Source: Pseudodesulfovibrio mercurii
GTDB taxonomy: Bacteria; Desulfobacterota; Desulfovibrionia; Desulfovibrionales; Desulfovibrionaceae
Direction: 5' to 3'
NCBI RefSeq assembly: GCF_000189295.2
Contig: NC_016803.1
Location: 3,660,001-3,692,000, forward strand
Length of the DNA: 32,000 bases
In this document: positions 3,513 through 26,723 of the stretch, piece after piece
How the letters are laid out: every line of letters starts with the position of its first letter
Numbering within the stretch: the stretch's first letter is position 1
Program-made: the position numbers and the translations under genes
Notes under the pieces: generated by a model
Databases searched by the model: none
What the model was told of the DNA's origin: nothing
What the model saw: the letters and a program-made list of their open reading frames with translations, nothing else

Positions 3513-4862
3513 TCAGGCCCGTTCGCGTCGGCGGTTGCGCGGCCGGTCGCCGTGCATGAGCCACGCGCCCGCCACCAGGATGAGCAGGGACAGGACCAGG
3601 AAGTGCAGGAACATGGTCTTCTGGATGGCCCCCCAGATGATGTACAGGGAACCGGCCCCGGCCAGGCAGGGGCAGGCGTAGCGGTTGAAGGGGCCGAGGT
3701 CGGTGAAGGTCTTCATGACCCAGACGTAGAGGGAGATGTAGATGACGTAGAGGAAGGCGATGGGCAGCTCGGAGATGTCCATGAAGTTGCCCCACCAGCC
3801 CGCGAAGTTGCCGTACCAGACCAGGAGCCAGAAGCAGGAGAGGACGTAGCCGATGACCGCCGATAGGGTGGTGCTGTTGGTCAGGGGATTGACCTTGCTG
3901 AACAGGTCCGGGCGCGGGCCCAGGCCGCGCGAGGCGATGGAGAACATGCCGCGCGCCGAGCCCATGATCAGGCCGTTCAGGGTGCCCAGGCAGGAGATGA
4001 TCACGAAAACCGTGAGCAGGGTGCCACCCAGGCGGCCGAAGATGAGGGCGATGACCCGCACCGGGGCCGCGTCGCCCTCGGCCAGGACCTGCTCGTTGGT
4101 CAGCACGCCCGAGATGCCCAGGTAGTAGAGCATGTAGATGCAGACCACGGCGATGGTCCCGACCACCAGGGCGCGGGGCAGGGTGCGCCTGGCGTCCTTG
4201 AGCTCCGCGTTGATGACCGTGGCGATGATCCAGCCCTCGTAGGCGAAGGCCGTGGACAGGGTGGCCAGGGCCAGGCCGCCGCCTCCCTGGGACACGGTCC
4301 TGGCCGCGGTGGTGAAGTTTTCCATGGTCATGCCCGAGTGCATCCCGGTGATGGTCCCGACCACGGCCACCAGGGCCAGGGGGATGAGCTTGATGACGGT
4401 GGAGGCCACCTGCCACCGCCCGGCCAGGACCGGCGAGAAGTAGTTGAGCAGGAAGAAGGCCGTCAGGTAGCCCCAGGCCAGCGGCCACAGGGCGCCCTCC
4501 ACGCCCATCAGTCCCTGGGTGTAGTTGGCCGAGACCCAGGCCAGCACGGCCACCAGGGTGGGATAGTAGATGAAGGTCATGAACCAGGCCACCATGTATC
4601 CGGCGTTTTTGCCGTAGGCCTGTTCGAAGTAGTCCACCACGCCGTTGATCTTCTGGATGCGGGTGGCGATCTTGGAGAAGACGTAGGCGGTGACGACCAT
4701 GATCACGCCGCCGATGAGCCAGGCGGACAGGGCCGTGGGCAGGCTCCCGTTCGAGGCCTCGAGCACGTTGTCCGCCTTGAAGAATACGCCCGAGCCGATG
4801 ACGATGCCCACGACCATGGCGGTCGCGGTCCAGAATCCGTACTTTTTTTGTAGGTTGTTCAT
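3513..4862 (-). CDS. APC-family amino acid permease
   Basis: About 12 predicted TM helices. The N-terminus FWTATAMVVGIVIGSGVFFK is typical of amino acid/polyamine/organocation transporters. Confidence 0.85.
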   Translation of the reverse strand: MNNLQKKYGFWTATAMVVGIVIGSGVFFKADNVLEASNGSLPTALSAWLIGGVIMVVTAYVFSKIATRIQKINGVVDYFEQAYGKNAGYMVAWFMTFIYYPTLVAVLAWVSANYTQGLMGVEGALWPLAWGYLTAFFLLNYFSPVLAGRWQVASTVIKLIPLALVAVVGTITGMHSGMTMENFTTAARTVSQGGGGLALATLSTAFAYEGWIIATVINAELKDARRTLPRALVVGTIAVVCIYMLYYLGISGVLTNEQVLAEGDAAPVRVIALIFGRLGGTLLTVFVIISCLGTLNGLIMGSARGMFSIASRGLGPRPDLFSKVNPLTNSTTLSAVIGYVLSCFWLLVWYGNFAGWWGNFMDISELPIAFLYVIYISLYVWVMKTFTDLGPFNRYACPCLAGAGSLYIIWGAIQKTMFLHFLVLSLLILVAGAWLMHGDRPRNRRRERA

Positions 4863-5050
4863 GATGATATTGGGTCGCCCTGTAGGGCCGTATAGGGGGT
4901 TTGCGATAGCTGCCCGTCCTTCCCTTTGACCGCACCTCCTGCGGCGACGGGCCTTGGACCCATTACCGCCCCGGCCCGGTTACGTCCAGCCCTTTCCCGC
5001 ATCCGTTCGGCTCGACCGCGCACGGCCGGGCACGGCGCGCGCATTGTCGC

Positions 5051-5112: not shown

Positions 5113-5826
5113 ATGGAAGCCAGACCAGTGAGCAGAAAGAGCATATCCGGCGAGATCGTCAGCCAGATCAGGGAGATGATCGATCACGGGCGGTTGCAGC
5201 CCGGCGACCGGCTGCCTGCCGAGCGCCGGCTGGCCGAGCAGTTCGGCGTGTCCCGCACCACGGTGCGCGAGGGCATCAAGATCCTGTCAGAGTCCGGGTT
5301 GCTGACCAGCCGCCAGGGCGCGGGGACCTTTGTCAGCCGTCCGGACGACGGGAACCGGGAGGGGGCGCTGATCGAGGCGGTCCTGGCCGGGAACTACGGC
5401 CTCCAGGACGTCTTCGAGGTGCGCAAGATGCTCGAGCCCGAGATCGCGGCCCTGGCCGCGCGCAACGGCTCTCCGGACGCCAAGACCCGGCTCGAGGCCA
5501 TCATCATGGAGCAGGAACAGGCCATTGCGGACGGCGAGAGCGGGGCGGGCATCGACCACCGCTTTCACCAGGCCCTGGCCGAGGCCTCGGGCAACCCTGT
5601 GTTGCGCGAAATGGTCACGGCCCTGCATGAGGGGTTCTCGCGCAGTCGGGCCGAGGAGGTCCAGTCGCCCCGGCGGGCCAAGGCCTCCCTGGCCGCCCAC
5701 CGGGCCATCGTGGAGGCCGTCAGGAACGGCCACGCCATGCAGGCCGAGCGGGCCATGCGGGAGCATCTCGACGAAGTGGAAAGAATCATCTTTGATAATC
5801 AAAGAGGAGTATACTCAAGGAGATAG
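5113..5826 (+). CDS. GntR-family transcriptional regulator, FadR/FCD subfamily (LldR/PdhR-like)
   Basis: Winged HTH sequence LPAERRLAEQFGVSRTTVREGIKILSESGLLTSRQGAGTFV plus a C-terminal FCD-like helical domain. I prefer the ATG at 5113 (GAGG 7 nt upstream) because the ORF-track TTG at 5083 lies inside the operator. Confidence 0.85.
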   Translation: MEARPVSRKSISGEIVSQIREMIDHGRLQPGDRLPAERRLAEQFGVSRTTVREGIKILSESGLLTSRQGAGTFVSRPDDGNREGALIEAVLAGNYGLQDVFEVRKMLEPEIAALAARNGSPDAKTRLEAIIMEQEQAIADGESGAGIDHRFHQALAEASGNPVLREMVTALHEGFSRSRAEEVQSPRRAKASLAAHRAIVEAVRNGHAMQAERAMREHLDEVERIIFDNQRGVYSRR

Positions 5827-7664: not shown

Positions 7665-7788
7665 GGCGGCTTGCGATAGCGGGCCGCCTGCACATTTTTC
7701 GTGGGCCTGTCTGACCGCAGCGTAGCCTAGCTACGTGAGGATCAGACAGGTCCACGAAAAATGCACATTCGACCCCCTCTCCCAAGCC
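7665..7788. repeat. family-A long palindromic repeat, copy A1
   Basis: Outer arms GGCGGCTTGCGATAGCGGGCCGCCTGCACATTTTT and its imperfect complement. The 22-bp inner stem (7693-7714 with 7742-7763) has one G-T pair. The 27-nt loop is CCGCAGCGTAGCCTAGCTACGTGAGGA. Confidence 0.85.
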
Positions 7789-7860
7789 TATTCCGGGCGC
7801 GGGGGAGAGAGCCGTTGTCGGGTGCTGCGCACCCGAATCACTCCAGGGTGGAAGAAGAGA

Positions 7861-12500: not shown

Positions 12501-12668
12501 GAGAGTGGGTCGGCTGTGCATTTTCTTCCGGCCGCGACAACCGCAGTGTGCATCAGTTCTTAGGCCGAGCTTGCTCGGTCTTAGAGATGACGACAGCAGC
12601 GATAGCCGGCTACGTGAGGATTGGCGCGGCCGGAAAAAATGTGCAGATGGCCCGCTATCGGAAGCCGC
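12500..12668. repeat. family-A long palindromic repeat, copy A2 (inverted, with ~50-nt loop insertion)
   Basis: Outer arms CGAGAGTGGGTCGGCTGTGCATTTT and AAAAAATGTGCAGATGGCCCGCTATCGGAAGCCGC. The inner stem pairs 12519-12540 with 12621-12641. The loop keeps CCGCAG...CTACGTGAGGA. Confidence 0.8.
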
Positions 12669-20185: not shown

Positions 20186-20212
20186 AAATCCTGCACGATA
20201 CGAGAATAAAAA

Positions 20213-20238
20213 GGGCCGCCCCCAGGGTGGCCCTTTTT
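20213..20238 (+). terminator. rho-independent terminator
   Basis: Stem GGGCCGCC with GGTGGCCC (one G-T pair), loop CCCAG, then T5. It lies 28 nt after the stop at 20185. Confidence 0.7.
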
Positions 20239-20285
20239 GCATTTTGCCGGTACGGTGGCGGTAGAAATACGGAGGTCTTCATCCC

Positions 20286-20468
20286 ATGGCAGTGAACACG
20301 GACAGCATCCAGTCGGCAATGCCCCTCCTGAAGCAGAAGGGCGTCTCGGAAGACTACATCCTGGCCTACATCGTGGCCCTCGAATCCGCCGGAGCCGGCA
20401 ACGAAAACCCCTCCAGCGTCTTCAACACCATGCTCCGGGCATTGGCGGAGGCCAAGCCGTCCTCGTGA
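20286..20468 (+). CDS. small hypothetical protein (60 aa)
   Basis: GGAGG lies 9 nt upstream of the ATG. Composition is native GC-rich with GC3 bias. I do not recognise a family. Confidence 0.5.
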   Translation: MAVNTDSIQSAMPLLKQKGVSEDYILAYIVALESAGAGNENPSSVFNTMLRALAEAKPSS

Positions 20469-20519
20469 GTCCCGTGGAGTAGACGGCTAATGGTCGGGAT
20501 TCCTAGGCTGCTCGAACTC

Positions 20520-21350
20520 AACTCGATTTGATTTTGTGTCTTCCGTCGGGCCAACAATACAGAAGTATTTTGTCGGAAGAGCTGCAGTGGGGAAAAGGGA
20601 ATGCGATTACCAGCTGCATAATGGAGACTCTTAATGCAGTTAGCTTCTTCTCTTATTTATTTCGGATATCCGCGTTAAATTTTTTAACTATAGCAGCAGC
20701 CATTTTCCGTAGTTCTTTGGCGTGACATTTTTTGTACTTCAGACCGGAACCGCAAGGACAAGAACAGCCTGGCCCATTACCAATCTCAATAAGTTCTTCA
20801 AGGCTTTCTTTCCACTCATATATCCATTCTAGAATATCTGCATCTATATCTTCGAATGTTCTGACACGTTGGAATGAATTTTCTCCATAATTAGTAAAAT
20901 GATACAACGCATTGTTAATTAAGATATAATCATCGATTAGTCTGTTGTTGGATAAATTTTTCCTGATGTTATTAACTTGTTTATCGTTGTATCCATTATT
21001 TTTATCATGAAGGAATAAAATTTTATTCTCTCCACTGCGATTAGGTGTGATATCTATCCAATCACCTTGCTCAGATTCCCATATAGAGTGAAATTCAGCT
21101 TCAATAAAAAGATTCGGTATCATCCATATTTTCCAACCATAAAGGATATTCCCGCCATCTTGTTCAATTTTTTTTTGAACATTGGGAAAGCATTCATCAA
21201 GCAAAGAATATTTTTCTTTTTGTATAGATAAATATACTAGTGGTCCAGTTGATATTTCGGAGCAAAAGTCTTTGACTTCTTCCGTTATATTCGGAGGTAC
21301 GATTTCCATGATTTATTTCTTCACTGACGACTAATATTGATTCTGTGGAT
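20520..21350. mobile_element. AT-rich island (about one-third G+C) carrying one gene; probable horizontally acquired insertion
   Basis: Composition shifts abruptly against roughly two-thirds G+C flanks. The right edge abuts the stop codon (21354) of a native membrane-protein gene. No recombinase or clear terminal repeats were seen. Confidence 0.45.
20653..21309 (-). CDS. hypothetical protein with C-terminal SEC-C metal-binding motif
   Basis: A 218-aa ORF with AT-rich codon usage. The sequence GCSCPCGSGLKYKKCH is encoded at 20722-20769. I do not recognise the N-terminal ~180 aa. Confidence 0.7.
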   Translation of the reverse strand: MEIVPPNITEEVKDFCSEISTGPLVYLSIQKEKYSLLDECFPNVQKKIEQDGGNILYGWKIWMIPNLFIEAEFHSIWESEQGDWIDITPNRSGENKILFLHDKNNGYNDKQVNNIRKNLSNNRLIDDYILINNALYHFTNYGENSFQRVRTFEDIDADILEWIYEWKESLEELIEIGNGPGCSCPCGSGLKYKKCHAKELRKMAAAIVKKFNADIRNK

Positions 21351-21353
21351 TTC

Positions 21354-22163: not shown

Positions 22164-23294
22164 TCAGTCAAAGAGATACAGGAATTTCGCGTAGCCTTCG
22201 GCGGCCATTTCATCCTTTGGGATGAAGCGCAGGGCGGCGGAGTTCAGGCAGTAGCGCAGGCCGGTGGGCGCGGGGCCGTCGTTGAACACGTGGCCCAGGT
22301 GCGAGTCGCCTCCTTTGCTCCGCACTTCGGTGCGCGCGGCGAAGAGGGAGCGGTCCTCCCTTTCAACCAGGTTTTCCGGGACCAGGGGGCGGGTGAAGCT
22401 CGGCCAGCCCGAGCCGGAATCGAACTTGTCCGTGCTGGCGAAGAGCGGTTCGCCGCTGACCACGTCCACGTAGATGCCGTCCGCGTGGTTGTCCCAGTAG
22501 CGGTTGTTGAAGGGCGGTTCCGTGCCTTCGCGCTGGGTCACGTCGTACTGGAGCGGGGTGAGCGTGCGCTTGAGGACGTCCGGGGCGGGCTTGAGGAAGG
22601 GCTCGGGGGCCGGGGGTTCGGTTTGGGCGCGGGCCGTCTTGACCACAGCCTCGGCCTCTTCGCCCCAGTGCTCGGCCGTGAACCGGTCGCGGCCCGAGAA
22701 GTGGCGGTAGGTCTTGTAGCGCACGGGATTGAACCGGCAGTAGTTCTGGTGGTAGCCCTCGGCCGGGTAGAAGGTGGTGAATTCGACGACGGCGGTGACC
22801 ACCGGGCCATCGAACCGGCCGGATTCGTCCAGGGCCTTTTTCGAGGCTTCGGCCACGGCGCGTTGGGCCTTGTCGTGGTAGAAGATGGCCGAGGTGTACT
22901 GGAACCCCCGGTCTCCGAAGGAGCCGCCGCCGTCCGTGGGGTCGAAGTGGCGCCAGTAGTGGTCGAGAATCTGGGCGTAGCCGATGCGCGCAGGGTCGAA
23001 GGTCACCTGGACCGCCTCGCGGTGGCCCGTGGTCCCGCTTGAGACCTGTTCGTAGGTGGGATCGGGTTCGCTGCCGCCCGCATAGCCCGAGACGACCTTG
23101 ATCACGCCGGGCAGCTTCTGCATGTCCGCCTCCACGCACCAGAAACAACCGCCCGCCAGGGTGGCCGTCTCGAAGTGGGTATTGCCGTTGTCAGCCATGG
23201 CCTGTTCCTCCGATGTCGAAAACAGGGTCGATCCGATTCCTGCGGCCAGGAGCACGGCTCCGGCCAGGACGATGAGCGCGGGTTTGCGGAACAT
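22164..23294 (-). CDS. msrAB: secreted bifunctional methionine sulfoxide reductase MsrA/MsrB
   Basis: Contains MsrA GGCFWCVE, MsrB GWPSF and RYCLNS, and an N-terminal signal-like [19 protein letters not shown]. The ATG at 23294 has a GGAGG RBS. The ORF-track start at 23753 adds a Pro-rich artefact. Confidence 0.9.
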
Positions 23295-23337
23295 GGGATC
23301 GCCTCCGTTTTCGCTAATAGTAGCTGTTATCGGAAGA

Positions 23338-23365
23338 TATATAGACATGAACCGGACCAAGTCAA
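23338..23365 (-). promoter_or_regulatory. candidate sigma-70 promoter of msrAB
   Basis: On the minus strand: TTGACT (23360-23365), a 16-nt spacer, then TATATA (23338-23343). It lies in a local AT-rich patch about 45 nt upstream of the ATG. Confidence 0.5.
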
Positions 23366-23370
23366 TGGTC

Positions 23371-23600
23371 TGAGCGGGCGGCGGCAGGGGATGCGGCGGT
23401 GGTGGTTGGGGGGGGCGACAAGGGGGCGATGGAGGGTGCGACCTGGCGGTGAAGGGGCTTCGGGGACGGTGAGGCGGGTCTGATGGTGTGAGGGCGGGGG
23501 CGGTGTGGGGGAAGTGACGGGGGGAAGGTGGTGCGGGCTTGTGAGGGGCTGCGCGGGAGCCCGTGAAGGGCGCGCGGGGGCGTGCTGGGGGGTGCGCGTA
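23371..23600 (+). repeat. strand-asymmetric G-rich tract with quasi-periodic GTGA(A/G/C)GG motif
   Basis: About 20 runs of three or more G on the plus strand and few C. GTGA starts at 23449, 23469, 23488, 23514, 23541 and 23563. Confidence 0.7.
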
Positions 23601-23775
23601 GTTCGGGCGGGGCGCGGGAAAAACGGCCATTCGGTATTTTTTGCCGGAAAAGGGTGGATTTTTGATTTGTTTTGGGGCAAGTGGCATTGCTTCGCGGCCC
23701 CGTGATGTGCATAGTACCCGTGTCGGGCCGTAGGCCGCGACCGAATTTCGCATTCAATCACAGCAAGGAGAGACC

Positions 23776-24324
23776 ATGCCCAACCAGAATTACGTTCTTT
23801 TCAGCGGCGGCGCCCAGGGTGCCGAGAATCAGTTCGGCAAGCTCGCCGAGTACCACGGCCTGTCCGAGGTGAACTTCACCTTCGAAGGCCACCGCATCGA
23901 GCGCACCCGCGGCGTGCGGGTCCTGACCGACGAGGAACTGACCCAGAAGGACGTCAGCCTGACCTACGTGTCCAGGCTCCTGAACCGCAAGTTCACCAAC
24001 GCGGAAAAGATGCGCAAGGTCCTGCAGACCATCATGTGGCAGGTGGACGCCAGCCAGCAGATCTTCGTGGTCGGCACCATCCTGGACGACGGCACGGTCA
24101 AGGGCGGCACCGGCTGGGGTGCGGAGTTCGCCAAGATCTGCAACAAGGAGCTGTTCGTCTTCGACCAGGCCAAGGATGCATGGTCCACCTGGGAGCACGG
24201 CGCGTGGGTCGCGGTGGACGCCCCCAAGATCACCGCCGGCCACTTCACCGGCACCGGCACCCGCTTCCTTGAGGAAAACGGCAAGAAGGCGCTGGAGGAT
24301 TTGTTCTCCCGTTCCTTCAAATAG
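23776..24324 (+). CDS. hypothetical protein, possible SLOG-like (LOG/DprA/YpsA-type) Rossmann fold
   Basis: N-terminal VLFSGGAQGAENQFGKLA and C-terminal FTGTGTRFLEENG resemble the two glycine-rich loops of SLOG-superfamily proteins. AAGGAGAG RBS and native GC content. Confidence 0.6.
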   Translation: MPNQNYVLFSGGAQGAENQFGKLAEYHGLSEVNFTFEGHRIERTRGVRVLTDEELTQKDVSLTYVSRLLNRKFTNAEKMRKVLQTIMWQVDASQQIFVVGTILDDGTVKGGTGWGAEFAKICNKELFVFDQAKDAWSTWEHGAWVAVDAPKITAGHFTGTGTRFLEENGKKALEDLFSRSFK

Positions 24325-24344
24325 CGTTTTCGCACGACGGATAT

Positions 24345-24384
24345 AAAAGGCGGCCCGGATCACATCCGGGCCGCCTTTTTTCGT
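24345..24384. terminator. bidirectional terminator hairpin, left copy of 40-bp direct repeat
   Basis: Sequence AAAAGGCGGCCCGGATCACATCCGGGCCGCCTTTTTTCGT. It forms a perfect 15-bp stem (24345-24359 with 24365-24379) with loop TCACA. It lies 21 nt after the stop at 24324. Confidence 0.85.
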
Positions 24385-25082
24385 TGCATGTTGTCAAAGT
24401 AAATTGCATATAAAGAAAATGAGTATAGATAGTATTGACAGAAACAGGTTGCGTGATCTTTATCACGAGTTCGATCAATTTTTGGCTTCTATTCATGGTC
24501 TTTATTTAGATGCGTGCATAGGGTTTCGTCTAATAAATGTGAACCTTGATGAGAAACAGTCAGAATTAATAAAACTGATGGGAGGAAAAAGTTCTGGACT
24601 TCTAAGCTTACTCAATTTTTCTCATGAGAAATTCTATGGGGGAGAGTTTGCAGCATCTGGACTACATAGACCAAAAGTAGCAGATATTCGTGAGAGGACT
24701 GAAGAGAATGGTCGCAATGCAAATCTTGTAGGTGGAATGTGTGTGATTTCTTTATATGAGCATTGGGATGCGTATTTGCAAAATGAAATTGCAATAGCGA
24801 TTGGTCTGTCGAACAAGGATGATTTGAAGCATGATTTTTGGGGTGATATGCGAGATTTGAGGAATTATATAGTCCATCACGGAAGAAGAAATAGGAAAAA
24901 ATTGAAAAAAATGAAGCTATTGACTATGTGGCGTGATGATGGCGTTGTGGAGATCAATAATGAAGTAATAGCAATCATATTTAGACATTGCTTTCGGTTT
25001 AGAAATGAAATTCATACAATAAGTTTACCGCCACGACCAACTTTGCGTATCCCTTATTCCTGGAAGTAGTTAACAGGATATG
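24385..25082. mobile_element. AT-rich single-gene cassette bounded by the duplicated terminator
   Basis: About 700 bp at roughly 35% G+C, lying between identical 40-mers at 24345-24384 and 25083-25122. It carries one ORF and no recombinase gene. Confidence 0.6.
24419..25069 (+). CDS. hypothetical protein, candidate HEPN-type RNase (RNxxxH motif)
   Basis: The motif MRDLRNYIVHHG has its R codon at 24860-24862 and its H codon at 24875-24877. The protein looks largely helical and is followed by a basic stretch, RRNRKKLKKMK. The start is either the ATG at 24419 or the ORF-track TTG at 24404. Confidence 0.65.
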   Translation: MSIDSIDRNRLRDLYHEFDQFLASIHGLYLDACIGFRLINVNLDEKQSELIKLMGGKSSGLLSLLNFSHEKFYGGEFAASGLHRPKVADIRERTEENGRNANLVGGMCVISLYEHWDAYLQNEIAIAIGLSNKDDLKHDFWGDMRDLRNYIVHHGRRNRKKLKKMKLLTMWRDDGVVEINNEVIAIIFRHCFRFRNEIHTISLPPRPTLRIPYSWK

Positions 25083-25122
25083 AAAAGGCGGCCCGGATCA
25101 CATCCGGGCCGCCTTTTTTCGT
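25083..25122. terminator. bidirectional terminator hairpin, right copy of 40-bp direct repeat
   Basis: Identical 40-mer to 24345-24384. It lies 18 nt beyond the stop (25140) of the minus-strand sigma-54 activator gene. Confidence 0.85.
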
Positions 25123-25139: not shown

Positions 25140-26723
25140 CTAGACTTCGAGCTTCTTCTTGGGCTTTTTCTTGGTCTGCGAGTACTTCTTCACGTCGATG
25201 TTGTACTTCTTCACCTTGTAGTTGACGATCCGGTAGGACACGCGCAGGTCGCGGGCCGATTGCAGCATGTTGCCGCCGGTCTTCTTGAGCGAGTCGATGA
25301 GCAGCTCCTGCTCGAACTTGGCCACGGCCTCGCCGAAGGAGAGGTTGGTGCCCGTGGCCGAACTCTCGGCCGACTGCAGGGTCGGCGGCAGATGGTAGGT
25401 GCGGATGACCTGCTCCTCGCAGAGCAGGACCGCGCGCTCCATGCAGTTCTTCAGCTCGCGCACGTTTCCTGGCCAGTGGTACATGACCAGCAGCTCGATG
25501 GCGGGCGTGGAGATGCGCTTGACCTCCTTGCCGTATTCGTCGGTGAATTCGGCCAGGAAGTGTTCCGCGAGAGGCAGGATGTCCTCTCGCCGCTCCTTGA
25601 GGGGCGGTATGAAGATGGGGAAGACGTTGATGCGGTAGTACAGGTCCTCGCGGAACAGCCCCTTTTCCAGCAGCTCCTCGAGCGGCTGGTGGGTGGCGCA
25701 GATGAGGCGCACGTCCACGGTGATGGTCTGTTCGGAACCGACCCGCTGGATCTCTTTTTCCTGGATGGCCCGCAGCACCTTGGCCTGGGCGTCCATGGAC
25801 AGCTCGCCGATCTCGTCCAGGAACAGGGTGCCCTGGTCCGCCACCTCGAACAGGCCGCGCTTGGTCTGGAAGGCACCGGTGAAGGCGCCCTTCTGGTGGC
25901 CGAACAGCTCGGACTCGATGAGTTCGCTGGGCAGGGCCGCGCAGTTCAGCTTGATGAGCGGCTTGTCCGCCCGTGGGCTGGCCTGGTGGATGGCCTCGGC
26001 CAGGAGCTCCTTGCCGGTGCCGGACTCGCCGCGCAGCAACGCCGTGGCCCGGCTCGGGGCCACCTGGGTGGACTGGCGCAGGACCAGGCGCATGGCCTTG
26101 GAGGCGGCCACGAAGTCCTTGGGCGGGGTGGTGTCGGCTCCCCCGGCCATGAGGCCCTGGGAGAGCAGGTGGTTCTGGGTGGCCATCTCCTCCTGGAGCT
26201 GGGCCACGTGCCCGGCGATGATGCCCGCCACCACCTCGAGGAAGTCGCGGTGGGCGGCCATGTCGTCGGCAGGGATGAGCGGCACGTCCACGGACAGGGC
26301 CCCGATGACCTCGGACTCGTCCGAGCGCAGGTTGATGACCGGGACGCAGATGAAGCCGAGCTTGCGGAGCTCCTCCGGGCTGCGGCCGAAGGCCTTGTTC
26401 AGGAACTCGGGATCGTCTGACATGCGCGGCACGCTGATGGACTGGCCCGAGTCGAAGACCCGCCCGATGATGCCCCGGCCCGGCGAGTAGGTCACGTCGT
26501 CGGACTGGGCCGGGCTGTACGTCAGCGAGAGCTTCAGGTTCTCGGTCTTGGGGTCCATGATGACCATGAACGCCCGGACGTATTCCATATCCAGGGCCAG
26601 GGTCTTCAGGAGCGCGTTGAGCGATTCCTCGAGGGTCGTTTCCTTCCTCAAGGTCTCCTGAATGGTCCTCAGCGTGTGCAGGTAGCTGAGATCCCCGGAG
26701 TGGTCCTGTGTGTTGGTTGCCAT
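25140..26723 (-). CDS. sigma-54-dependent transcriptional activator with N-terminal GAF domain (NifA-like architecture)
   Basis: AAA+ motifs GESGTGKE and GAFTGA, plus DEIGEL, WPGNVRELKN and a C-terminal Fis-type HTH. Its start lies 10 nt downstream of the iorB stop. Confidence 0.9.
   Translation of the reverse strand: MATNTQDHSGDLSYLHTLRTIQETLRKETTLEESLNALLKTLALDMEYVRAFMVIMDPKTENLKLSLTYSPAQSDDVTYSPGRGIIGRVFDSGQSISVPRMSDDPEFLNKAFGRSPEELRKLGFICVPVINLRSDESEVIGALSVDVPLIPADDMAAHRDFLEVVAGIIAGHVAQLQEEMATQNHLLSQGLMAGGADTTPPKDFVAASKAMRLVLRQSTQVAPSRATALLRGESGTGKELLAEAIHQASPRADKPLIKLNCAALPSELIESELFGHQKGAFTGAFQTKRGLFEVADQGTLFLDEIGELSMDAQAKVLRAIQEKEIQRVGSEQTITVDVRLICATHQPLEELLEKGLFREDLYYRINVFPIFIPPLKERREDILPLAEHFLAEFTDEYGKEVKRISTPAIELLVMYHWPGNVRELKNCMERAVLLCEEQVIRTYHLPPTLQSAESSATGTNLSFGEAVAKFEQELLIDSLKKTGGNMLQSARDLRVSYRIVNYKVKKYNIDVKKYSQTKKKPKKKLEV

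Follow-up and report, generated by a model that had tools for sequence, protein, structure and literature searches.

We propose, with a probability of roughly 0.6, that a foreign cassette made up of a promoter and one open reading frame (ORF) entered a native bidirectional terminator of Pseudodesulfovibrio mercurii and duplicated the whole terminator, as an insertion with long target duplication. The locus lies in a 32-kb stretch of P. mercurii DNA, referred to here as the window; the genome is called ND132 below, and the loci compared with it are given by L numbers.

RESULTS

Two identical hairpins flank an AT-rich insert

The 40-mer AAAAGGCGGCCCGGATCACATCCGGGCCGCCTTTTTTCGT occurs in two exact copies on the plus strand of the 32-kb window, at positions 24345 to 24384 and 25083 to 25122, with 0 mismatches; in a shuffled-sequence control, 0 of 100 shuffles had any match. 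Directly 5' of the copies stand GGATAT (24339 to 24344) and GGATATG (25076 to 25082), and the full direct repeat is 46/47 bp long with one 1-nt indel. Both the identical pair and the shared GGATAT with its indel had been noted in the original prediction, and both held up. That prediction had also placed a hairpin with a 15-bp stem in each copy. The hairpin is there, but the stem length was slightly off: we found a core stem of 12 G+C-rich bp, or 16 bp with the A4/T4 pairs, and a loop of 3 nt, with a predicted free energy of -36.8 kcal/mol (z = -7.2).

The left terminator copy (24339 to 24384, no strand assigned) reads GGATAT, A4, the 12-bp GC stem, the loop CAC, the return stem, T6, and CGT. 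Native DNA borders it on the left and the AT-rich insert on the right. The right terminator copy (25076 to 25122, likewise without a strand) consists of GGATATG and the 40-mer, and the sequence to its right can be aligned with the empty sites described below for L005 and L006. A terminator scan of the window reported neither 40-mer hairpin, because the T run is taken up by pairing with the A run.

Searching for the hairpin pattern in 241 million metagenome records gave 10 matches, all single-copy and 9 of them in unrelated contexts, and a scan of a viral collection gave 0 matches. The copy number of the hairpin is two in the 32-kb window and one in each 10-kb orthologous locus. Within the DNA covered by these searches, the hairpin is thus not dispersed, which speaks against a common genome-wide terminator or a REP/BIME-like palindrome.

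The two copies enclose 691 bp (24385 to 25075, plus strand) with a G+C content of 0.34 to 0.39, versus 0.60 to 0.72 outside, which bears out the compositional break that had been claimed. This insert holds a promoter-like signal and, as anticipated, one ORF (24419 to 25069, 216 amino acids [aa]), with no terminator of its own. The promoter-like signal, read from the sequence, is TTGCAT, 17 nt, and CATATA, at 24384 to 24412 on the plus strand. It ends 6 nt before the ATG, a predicted position that suggests a leaderless cassette mRNA. The same layout is repeated in the other three cassette alleles described below. A scan tool proposed an alternative, overlapping promoter, TTGTCA-18-GAAAAT, at 24391 to 24420.

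No terminal inverted repeats were found at the ends of the insert, and none of the 20 ORFs of the 32-kb window has a recombinase or transposase domain. The cassette had been described as having no integrase or transposase, and our results agree with this; its sole ORF is HEPN-like. An insertion sequence or MITE was rejected on the same grounds (no transposase, no terminal inverted repeats, a HEPN-like sole ORF). We also searched for tRNA genes and found none, and there was no Rfam match. This led us to reject a tRNA-linked att element, for which the window offers neither a tRNA nor a tyrosine or serine recombinase, and a known RNA family at the hairpin. A second AT-rich islet in the window (20238 to 21353) has no flanking repeat, either there or in relatives.

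The hairpin is single in relatives without the cassette

Two convergent native genes flank the repeats. The upstream gene (23776 to 24324, plus strand, GC3 of 0.91) is an ORF of 182 aa that is conserved across Pseudodesulfovibrio, with orthologues in 9 genomes at 76 to 95% identity and a homologous hairpin after each. It had been labeled SLOG-like; the label was not borne out, as the protein has no significant match in Pfam or NCBIfam. The convergent gene (25140 to 26723, minus strand) encodes a sigma-54-dependent activator with GAF, AAA+, and HTH_8 domains in Pfam (Sigma54_activat, E = 4.7e-70). The convergent gene ends were read correctly, with the upstream stop at 24324 and the activator stop at 25140.

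We compared the orthologous locus in related genomes. In four relatives, L005 (Desulfovibrio caledoniensis), L006 (P. karagichevae), L007 (a MAG), and L015 (a metagenome contig), the site is empty, and a single homologous hairpin lies between the same convergent genes. The stop-to-stop distance is 58 to 75 bp in these four, versus 815 bp in ND132, and the flanks of the empty sites align up to the repeat borders. By flanking sequence, the nearest relatives of ND132 have empty sites. These are the single-terminator sites that the original prediction had led us to expect; the alternative, that every relative has two terminators around a GC-normal gene, did not apply. The presence of one hairpin in four empty sites indicates that the terminator is native and was later duplicated, in support of the earlier claim that an ancestral terminator was duplicated when foreign DNA integrated. 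Furthermore, the hairpin accompanies the upstream 182-aa gene across the genus with compensatory changes in the stem. Therefore, the hairpin is native and not element-borne.

Diverged cassette alleles occupy the same site in other lineages

L002 to L004 carry a cassette allele that is 56% identical, again between duplicated hairpins. Here the duplication has a perfect 34-nt hairpin and a length of about 34 to 37 bp, versus 46/47 bp in ND132, and in both lineages it covers the complete hairpin. The two L004 copies differ by 1 mismatch. The hairpin loop is G in L002 to L004 and CAC in ND132, and G is also the loop of the single hairpin of L006. Thus, the L002 to L004 loop matches that of L006 and differs from that of ND132, which indicates that the duplication copies each lineage's own terminator.

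Cassette alleles are also found beside the same sigma-54 gene in L001 and L032, where they lack the duplicated hairpin and sit between unrelated hairpins. Of all the alleles, the one in L032, a member of the L009-like clade, diverges most (40 to 43%). The sigma-54 activator gene is the constant neighbor, with the cassette directly 3' of it in 4/4 occupied lineages, and all close alleles known (at least 40% identity) adjoin this gene and come from one genus. We found no close allele elsewhere in phage, plasmid, and viral collections (tblastn and a viral-contig scan) or in 5.8 billion proteins. Because no close allele was found outside the genus, an external AT-rich donor pool is something that we infer and did not observe.

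To what extent have the cassette and its flanks diverged? Between cassette alleles, 51 to 54% of same-amino-acid codons differ, and the NG86 dS is above 2 or undefined, with synonymous sites saturated. In the sigma-54 gene, the fraction of differing codons is 0.04 to 0.12 within ND132, L002, L005, and L006. The dS of the flanks is 0.18 to 0.25 for most pairs; the 0.58 for ND132-L002 is based on just 70 codons in the upstream gene. GC3 is 0.31 to 0.36 in the four cassette alleles versus 0.84 to 0.94 in the flanking genes. Taken together, the saturated dS of the cassette, the low dS of the flanks, and the low GC3 of the cassette argue against simple vertical descent. Going by this synonymous divergence, the split between cassette alleles long predates that of the hosts.

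We also looked for import of the flanks through sliding identity and comparison of the 5' and 3' halves. Every pair showed higher divergence over the final ~200 nt of the upstream gene than over its 5' part. For L001, the 3' stretch is nearer to L010 than to L007, while the 5' part is nearest to L007. The 3' half was the faster one in all pairs, and the signal is weak and no larger than the usual difference in rate between 3' and 5' parts.

The cargo is a predicted HEPN-superfamily protein

The cargo gene, DND132_3293 (24419 to 25069, plus strand, GC3 of 0.31), encodes a solitary all-alpha protein of 216 aa from a RiboL-PSP-HEPN-related family, and its product is a 100% match to an NCBI protein of P. 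mercurii. An exact-sequence look-up of two window proteins returned no record. The family comprises 722 representative proteins. PF18735 (RiboL-PSP-HEPN) is matched by 13 of 33 family members, with a best E value of 1.6e-5, and DND132_3293 itself reaches E = 0.15 to HEPN_Apea over residues 137 to 166, which does not reach any Pfam threshold. The HEPN catalytic motif predicted here, Rx4H, reads R148-N-Y-I-V-H153 and is encoded at 24860 to 24877 on the plus strand; R148 and H153 show no variation in two family alignments, one with 40 members and one with 33. An AlphaFold2 model of DND132_3293 is all-helical with a pLDDT of 92.3 when the input is 33 sequences (38.7 with 3 sequences only). From the motif, the weak profile hits, and the all-alpha model, we predict that the cargo is a HEPN-superfamily protein, a putative RNase of the toxin or defense type.

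Other searches with the cargo were negative. Foldseek of the model against PDB and BFVD gave no match with E < 0.5, an HMM search of PDB sequences yielded nothing usable, and PADLOC and NCBIfam gave no match. No partner gene, for example one for an MNT antitoxin, accompanies the cargo gene, and the cargo has no nuclease or methylase domains. The cargo family looks foreign in 4/4 G+C-rich hosts examined and does not in two AT-rich hosts. A long flanking duplication was rejected as a general feature of the protein family, since it is absent in the distant contexts L026, L029, L033, L035, and L036. In L024, the exception among six distant contexts, the gene belongs to a small-gene array whose intergenic spaces share a repeated motif.

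DISCUSSION

How might the cassette have entered the terminator? In the proposed pathway, the 691-bp cassette would have entered the single bidirectional terminator common to the 182-aa gene and the sigma-54 activator gene, and the insertion would have duplicated the whole terminator, all 46/47 bp of it, so that both native genes would retain a terminator. The left copy would end the upstream gene and insulate the cassette from read-through, and the right copy would supply the terminator that the cassette is missing while also ending the convergent activator gene. For the joining itself, the two strands may have been cut at opposite sides of the hairpin. Such cutting would be easiest if the palindrome extruded as a cruciform and thereby brought its two bases together; the foreign DNA would then be joined and the gaps filled in. 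The enzyme may act in trans or may be a host repair activity. The site would thus be a recurrent hotspot, polymorphic for presence and absence, with diverged alleles received in four or more Pseudodesulfovibrio lineages. Two of these, ND132 and L002 to L004, would have had their resident lineage-specific hairpin duplicated. The direct repeats would offer a simple route of loss by recombination or slippage, restoring the single-terminator site. Gene conversion could also explain the perfect identity of the repeat copies.

Direct repeats around a small insert, with single-copy empty sites, would also be expected if the hairpin were an att site. A circular cassette with one hairpin would then integrate reversibly by a single crossover, through a trans-acting site-specific recombinase or through RecA over 35 to 46 bp of homology, and leave attL/attR-like ends. 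The need for homology to this terminator would fit the fidelity to one locus in one genus, and a 46-bp repeat is sufficient, as 46 bp is enough for RecA-dependent recombination. However, a crossover between hairpins with different loops would give unlike loops, and both lineages show identical copies with their own loop. The L001 and L032 cassettes between unrelated hairpins, the lack of a recombinase gene in the 32-kb window, and our failure to find a free, plasmid-borne, or phage-borne form also speak against a crossover, which we regard as unlikely. It is hardly credible that the cassette is of the integron type or a CALIN (an attC cluster without an integrase) and that the hairpins are attC sites. 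A single gene between palindromic repeats without an integrase has this appearance, and the distant homologue L024 lies in a small-gene array with a repeated motif. However, the ND132 hairpin is a perfect intrinsic terminator with an A run and a T run, and it is already single in the empty sites; therefore, it is part of the target and not of the cassette. In addition, there are no GTTRRRY core sites at the junctions and no extrahelical bases, the cassette has its own promoter, the window has no intI gene, and only two hairpins are present instead of an attC array.

Two histories in which insertion was rare were also considered. In one of them, an old single or rare insertion gave rise to the repeat, and the alleles have since circulated by transformation or transduction followed by homologous recombination in the flanks. 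Locus fidelity, deep allelic divergence, and presence/absence polymorphism fit this history, and the 3' stretch of the L001 upstream gene, nearer to L010 than to L007, hints at mosaicism. Nevertheless, that signal is weak and does not exceed the normal 3'/5' rate difference. Residence for long enough to saturate synonymous sites in a genus of 62 to 66% G+C should have raised GC3, which is still 0.31 to 0.36, and imported hairpins would not be expected to match the loop of the recipient clade, yet the L002 loop equals that of L006. We therefore find circulation through the flanks doubtful. The other history is a single ancient insertion with strictly vertical descent, in which the cassette evolves fast and is repeatedly lost between the repeats while gene conversion keeps the hairpins identical. 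The cassette tree agrees roughly with the host tree, L032 being the most divergent, the direct repeats are an easy route of loss, and the mismatch in L004 shows that the copies can drift. Still, this history is very improbable. The ND132-L002 dS is saturated in the cassette versus ~0.2 in the flanks, an at least five-fold excess; at least four to six independent precise losses would be needed, also in the repeat-less clades L007, L009, and L010; conversion would have to act across a 738-bp gap in two lineages; and the low GC3 would be left unexplained.

Repeated independent insertion at one site would need site-specific targeting. It is conceivable, although we consider it unlikely, that a recombinase-free cassette mobilized in trans targets the cruciform-forming terminator 3' of one sigma-54 gene, that the hairpin is duplicated each time, and that the alleles come from an unsampled AT-rich reservoir. 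If this were true, integration would be guided by structure and would differ from that of integrons, IS200/IS605, IS110, and tyrosine-recombinase islands. The cassette would be a tractable model for insertions with long target duplication, and the target hairpin would lend the element both a terminator and insulation.

For insertion with long target duplication, the explanation that we prefer, we know of no established mechanism after ~25 years of genome comparisons. Previously it was linked to restriction-modification genes, and the proposal was that the nucleases they encode cut the DNA. The ND132 locus, in a strain that can be cultivated, is a small, clean example with cargo of a non-nuclease type, a target defined as exactly one terminator hairpin, and natural empty sites. 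That at least two lineages show the same outcome, each on its own hairpin variant and with one hairpin as the target, points to DNA structure (a cruciform or hairpin) and not the cargo as the determinant. The locus also suggests that convergent genes can accommodate a foreign, potentially toxic gene between them with the termination of both neighbors undisturbed, and it adds an uncharacterized family of 722 HEPN-related representatives to be considered. Altogether, it fits a rarely documented route in which a gene enters by terminator duplication without a visible mobility enzyme.

Comparison with known systems

The minimal mobile elements of Neisseria are variable cassettes between conserved genes that are swapped by flanking homologous recombination. 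They share with the ND132 site a fixed position with variable or no content and the lack of a mobility gene. However, a duplicated terminator is not what defines them, and the contents of the ND132 site are alleles of one gene family. Integron cassettes, like the ND132 cassette, are single-gene units between palindromes, often with no integrase nearby. In contrast, attC is an imperfect palindrome with core sites that belongs to the cassette, and the cassettes are usually promoterless, whereas in ND132 the palindrome is the perfect terminator of the host and the cassette has its own promoter. With RiboL-PSP-HEPN (PF18735) and HEPN toxins, the cargo shares the Rx4H motif, an all-alpha fold of ~200 aa, and an accessory, foreign-looking distribution. 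Unlike the HEPN toxins of toxin-antitoxin and abortive infection systems, it falls below the Pfam threshold and has no MNT partner and no matching solved or viral structure.

A long target duplication of variable length is shared with IS1630. Calcutt and colleagues reportedly found in 1999 that this element targets terminator-like inverted repeats and duplicates them in full. IS1630 (IS30 family, Mycoplasma fermentans) is given a target duplication of 19 to 26 bp in the legend to Fig. 1 of PMC2853133, so that the ND132 duplication is about twice as long. Furthermore, IS1630 has a transposase and terminal inverted repeats, and the ND132 insert has neither.

The closest likeness is to insertion with long target duplication itself, which is credited to Nobusato et al. 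2000 through its citation as ref. 37 in Furuta, Abe and Kobayashi 2010 (NAR 38:2428; PMC2853133). Single-gene insertion of the ND132 kind had been called unusual. The arrangement is real, but it is not without precedent, since restriction-modification genes have entered genomes with target duplications of >30 bp (PMC2853133). That screen covered restriction-modification systems in inserts of <20 kb with no linked integrase, transposase, or prophage. The targets were >30 bp, unique in the genome, and single in the empty genome, and after insertion they flanked the insert as near-perfect direct repeats. Repeats of 46 and 47 bp are among the examples, the duplication length varies between events, there is no transposase or integrase, and the insert is often lower in G+C; DNA breakage by the restriction-modification cargo itself was proposed to be involved (PMC2853133). 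ND132 likewise shows presence/absence polymorphism, a repeat of >30 bp (46/47 bp), no mobility gene, and an insert of <20 kb that is low in G+C, with a single target in the empty genome. It differs in its cargo, a predicted RNase-type HEPN protein instead of a restriction-modification system. It differs also in its target, which is precisely one complete bidirectional terminator hairpin, and in that four lineages have this one site filled with diverged alleles of a single cassette.

A native terminator duplicated around foreign DNA

In P. mercurii ND132, the gene for a 182-aa protein stops at 24324 and the convergent sigma-54 activator gene (Sigma54_activat, E 4.7e-70) stops at 25140. We found the same 40-mer twice between these stops, at 24345-24384 and 25083-25122, with 0 mismatches; there is no further copy in the window, and 0 of 100 shuffles match. 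With the shared 5' extension (GGATAT on the left, GGATATG on the right), the direct repeat reaches 46/47 bp, including one indel. Each copy folds as a hairpin made of A4, a 12-bp G+C stem, the loop CAC, the return stem, and T6 (16 bp with the A·T pairs counted), and its predicted free energy is -36.8 kcal/mol (z = -7.2). The G+C content is 0.34 to 0.39 between the copies versus 0.60 to 0.72 outside. The repeat, the convergent gene ends, and the compositional break therefore stand as described in the original prediction. Its "SLOG-like" label for the 182-aa gene was not confirmed, as there was no significant Pfam or NCBIfam match.

That prediction had explained the arrangement as foreign DNA that duplicated one ancestral terminator, and its proposed test was to look in relatives for an empty site with a single terminator. 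Such sites exist. A one-genome-per-species scan with the 182-aa protein yielded nine Pseudodesulfovibrio loci, three of which (L005, D. caledoniensis; L006, P. karagichevae; L007, a metagenome-assembled genome [MAG]) are empty and have one hairpin, with 58 to 75 bp between the convergent stop codons. A fourth empty site, L015, came from a metagenome scan. The hairpin lies 3' of the 182-aa gene in 9/9 genomes; its stem changes are compensatory, and its loop differs by lineage. It stays with this gene also where the neighbor is not the sigma-54 gene. Because it is kept with compensatory changes in nine genomes, the hairpin is the native terminator. Since it is native and single at empty sites, the arrangement in ND132 arose by insertion with duplication of the terminator, which supports the predicted origin.

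We then searched for copies with a degenerate pattern covering all hairpin loop variants. In 241 million metagenome records it matched 10 single-copy places, of which 9 belong to unrelated organisms, and it had 0 matches in viral contigs. There is one copy per orthologous locus and two in the 32-kb window. Thus, the hairpin is not dispersed as far as could be tested in the window, orthologous loci, metagenome records, and viral contigs.

The foreign DNA (24385-25075) opens with a -35-like TTGCAT, and this hexamer overlaps the left repeat by one base, the last of that repeat. There follow 17 nt, CATATA, 6 nt, and the ATG of the cargo open reading frame (ORF) (24419-25069, plus strand), whose product has 100% identity to the Pseudodesulfovibrio mercurii hypothetical protein DND132_3293; the insert ends 6 nt past the stop codon. 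The other three known alleles have an equal layout (-35, 17 to 18 nt, -10, 6 to 7 nt, ATG) and no Shine-Dalgarno sequence. A promoter scan of the ND132 cassette also predicted an overlapping alternative promoter. This layout suggests that the unit would be a promoter plus a leaderless ORF with no terminator of its own, one being provided by the duplicated target. No terminal inverted repeats were found at the insert ends, and no tRNA or Rfam family was found with the insert.

Occupancy of the same site in other lineages

A word-based search followed by a full HMM search found only three close relatives of the cassette protein among 5.8 billion proteins, all encoded directly 3' of the same sigma-54 gene. 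P0003 (L002-L004; 56% identity to ND132) is flanked by a perfect 34-nt duplicated hairpin with the loop G, not CAC, an exact match to the single hairpin of P. karagichevae; in L004, one mismatch separates the two copies. P0002 (L001; 54% identity) is flanked by two unrelated hairpins. P0004 (L032; 40 to 43% identity) has no repeat; on one side of it is the sigma-54 stop and on the other the start of a 538-aa gene (L032 1-495). In one clade, this GC-normal gene fills the space between the 182-aa and sigma-54 genes, and it is there without a cassette at L009 6241-7854 and L010 5604-7220 (minus strand).

Age of the alleles and route of spread

Over the 5' part of the 182-aa gene, ND132, L005, and L006 share 95.6 to 96.8% identity, followed by L015 (92%), L001 and L007 (87%), and L009 and L010 (80 to 84%). 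By this clean host grouping, the nearest relatives of ND132 have empty sites. Flank dS within the ND132/L002/L005/L006 group is 0.17 to 0.25 for most pairs; the ND132-L002 upstream-gene value of 0.58 was measured over only 70 codons. Every pair of cassette alleles has a dS that is >2 or undefined, with a dN of 0.42 to 0.59. Codons for the same amino acid differ at 4 to 12% in the sigma-54 gene versus 51 to 54% in the cassette alleles, which is the saturation expectation. Therefore, the alleles predate the host split by a large factor, and this counts against simple vertical descent. Descent supplemented by gene conversion is quite improbable. GC3 is 0.31 to 0.36 in 4/4 alleles versus 0.84 to 0.94 in neighboring genes, a contrast that is difficult to square with prolonged residence in the genus.

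No cassette homologues were found in phage, plasmid, or viral collections, and every close allele is at one locus, which together count against an external origin. Because low GC3 and old alleles clash with this lack of an external source, spread among congeners is a serious rival: one founding insertion would have been passed on through flanking homologous recombination. We consider this unlikely.

Between the empty sites and ND132, a single native terminator became two copies around foreign DNA, and such duplication was seen on two different hairpin variants. Under insertion with target duplication, strands would be cut on opposite sides of the palindrome, plausibly after extrusion of a cruciform, at whose base those two sides adjoin. 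The foreign DNA would then be joined and the gaps filled by an enzyme in trans or by host repair, and the direct repeats could later permit cassette loss by recombination or slippage. A crossover inside the hairpin, att-type or RecA mediated, might also leave a copy on each side, and we regard it as just as doubtful as spread from a single founding event. The ND132 and L002-L004 duplications differ in length, and each spans one complete hairpin. The original prediction noted that the cassette has no integrase or transposase, and no recombinase gene was found among 20 ORFs of the window.

The cargo protein

The motif FWGD-x-R-x-LR-x4-H is common to the three close proteins. Searching 1.84 billion representatives with a profile returned 722 relatives, mostly of ~200 aa (269 at E <= 1e-10). 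R93, W116, R148, and H153 are invariant in both a 40-member and a 33-member alignment, D143 in the latter, and G35 and N100 in the former. RiboL-PSP-HEPN (PF18735) was matched by 13/33 relatives (best E 1.6e-5), Swt1-like HEPN and MAE_28990-like HEPN by single members, and Apea-like HEPN weakly by the ND132 cargo itself (E 0.15). AlphaFold2, given 33 sequences, produced a confident all-helical model (pLDDT 92.3). Model and profile searches found no match in PDB or BFVD, nor did the cargo match PADLOC or NCBIfam. With moderate confidence, we predict that the cargo is a divergent member of the HEPN superfamily and probably acts as an RNase toxin or defense effector.

Distant relatives are likewise solitary genes, one of them among toxin-antitoxin genes. 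Their G+C content is below that of the host in 4/4 G+C-rich hosts examined (0.44 versus 0.64, 0.54 versus 0.67 to 0.74, 0.37 versus 0.47, and 0.52 versus 0.57 to 0.60) and is not lower in two AT-rich hosts. In the AT-rich genome of L024 (4548-10420), the gene for P0156 (32% identity) is part of a series of small accessory genes on one strand (adenylyltransferase, methyltransferases, HTH protein, acetyltransferase) with five copies of TTGACTTATACTGTCAGAAATT between genes. This arrangement may represent either a cassette array or a promoter/operator common to the genes. In L029, P0167 (Planctomycetes MAG) follows pheS at the expected place of pheT, bracketed by a 17-nt inverted repeat, AACCACGAAT(T)AAACAC (4975-4995 and about 5735-5755).

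Other variable spots nearby

A second AT-rich islet (20238-21353; G+C 0.34, GC3 0.28) directly follows a terminator (20208-20238). Its ORF (20653-21309, minus strand) encodes 218 aa with a C-terminal SEC-C motif (PF02810, E 4.4e-6), over whose residues there are weak PADLOC "E2" matches. This spot holds different DNA in relatives, which makes it a second variable hotspot; a search for flanking direct repeats found none. At this position, L001 (2400-5600) has DNA of lower G+C content over ~3 kb, which carries an IS1595-family transposase and an RHS/YD-repeat gene fragment and includes two copies, at 4573 and 5565, of a 39-nt direct repeat.

An intergenic element of about 125 to 170 nt recurs at 7666-7790 (plus), 12501-12668 (minus), and L001 9432-9570, the last directly left of the cassette. 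Its conserved ends (GCGGCTTGCGATAGCGG..CTGCACATTTTT and AGAAAATGCACAGCCGACCCACTCTC) make up a long inverted repeat on either side of a variable middle, and it has no Rfam family match. Between the msrAB-like and 182-aa genes, 23325-23600 has a strong G skew (GC skew up to 0.6) and does not align with L005 or L006. ORF 22164-23753 extends over it with a long, proline-rich N-terminal part that probably does not truly encode protein. In every genome pair, the 182-aa gene diverges 2 to 3 times faster over its last ~200 nt (24125-24324) than over its 5' part. In L001, this 3' stretch is nearer to that of L010 than to that of L007, the closest relative of L001 over the 5' part. This pattern may reflect recombination beside the insertion site.

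Comparison with known systems

Three element classes were rejected, each lacking at least one tested defining feature: integron attC (the hairpin is native to empty sites), IS/MITE (no terminal inverted repeats at the insert ends), and att/tRNA island (no tRNA, and no recombinase gene in the window). A REP element is also disfavored within the DNA searched, where the hairpin is not dispersed. IS1630 reportedly duplicates terminator-like inverted repeats whole, as Calcutt and colleagues are said to have described in 1999, and would by analogy be the nearest mechanistic parallel to the ND132 insertion. Its target duplications are 19 to 26 bp (PMC2853133). The nearest match in the literature is insertion with long target duplication, which involves no mobility gene and a unique target of >30 bp that is single in a relative and becomes direct repeats; among published cases are repeats of 46 and 47 bp and inserts of low G+C content (PMC2853133). 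Restriction-modification genes were the cargo in that report, and the way such insertions arise is unexplained (PMC2853133). The ND132 locus has this structure, with repeat uniqueness judged within the window and orthologous loci, but its cargo differs in not being restriction-modification. We classify it as a new case within a known type of insertion that still lacks a mechanistic explanation; its useful features are a target defined by its structure, empty sites that occur naturally, and repeated occupancy.
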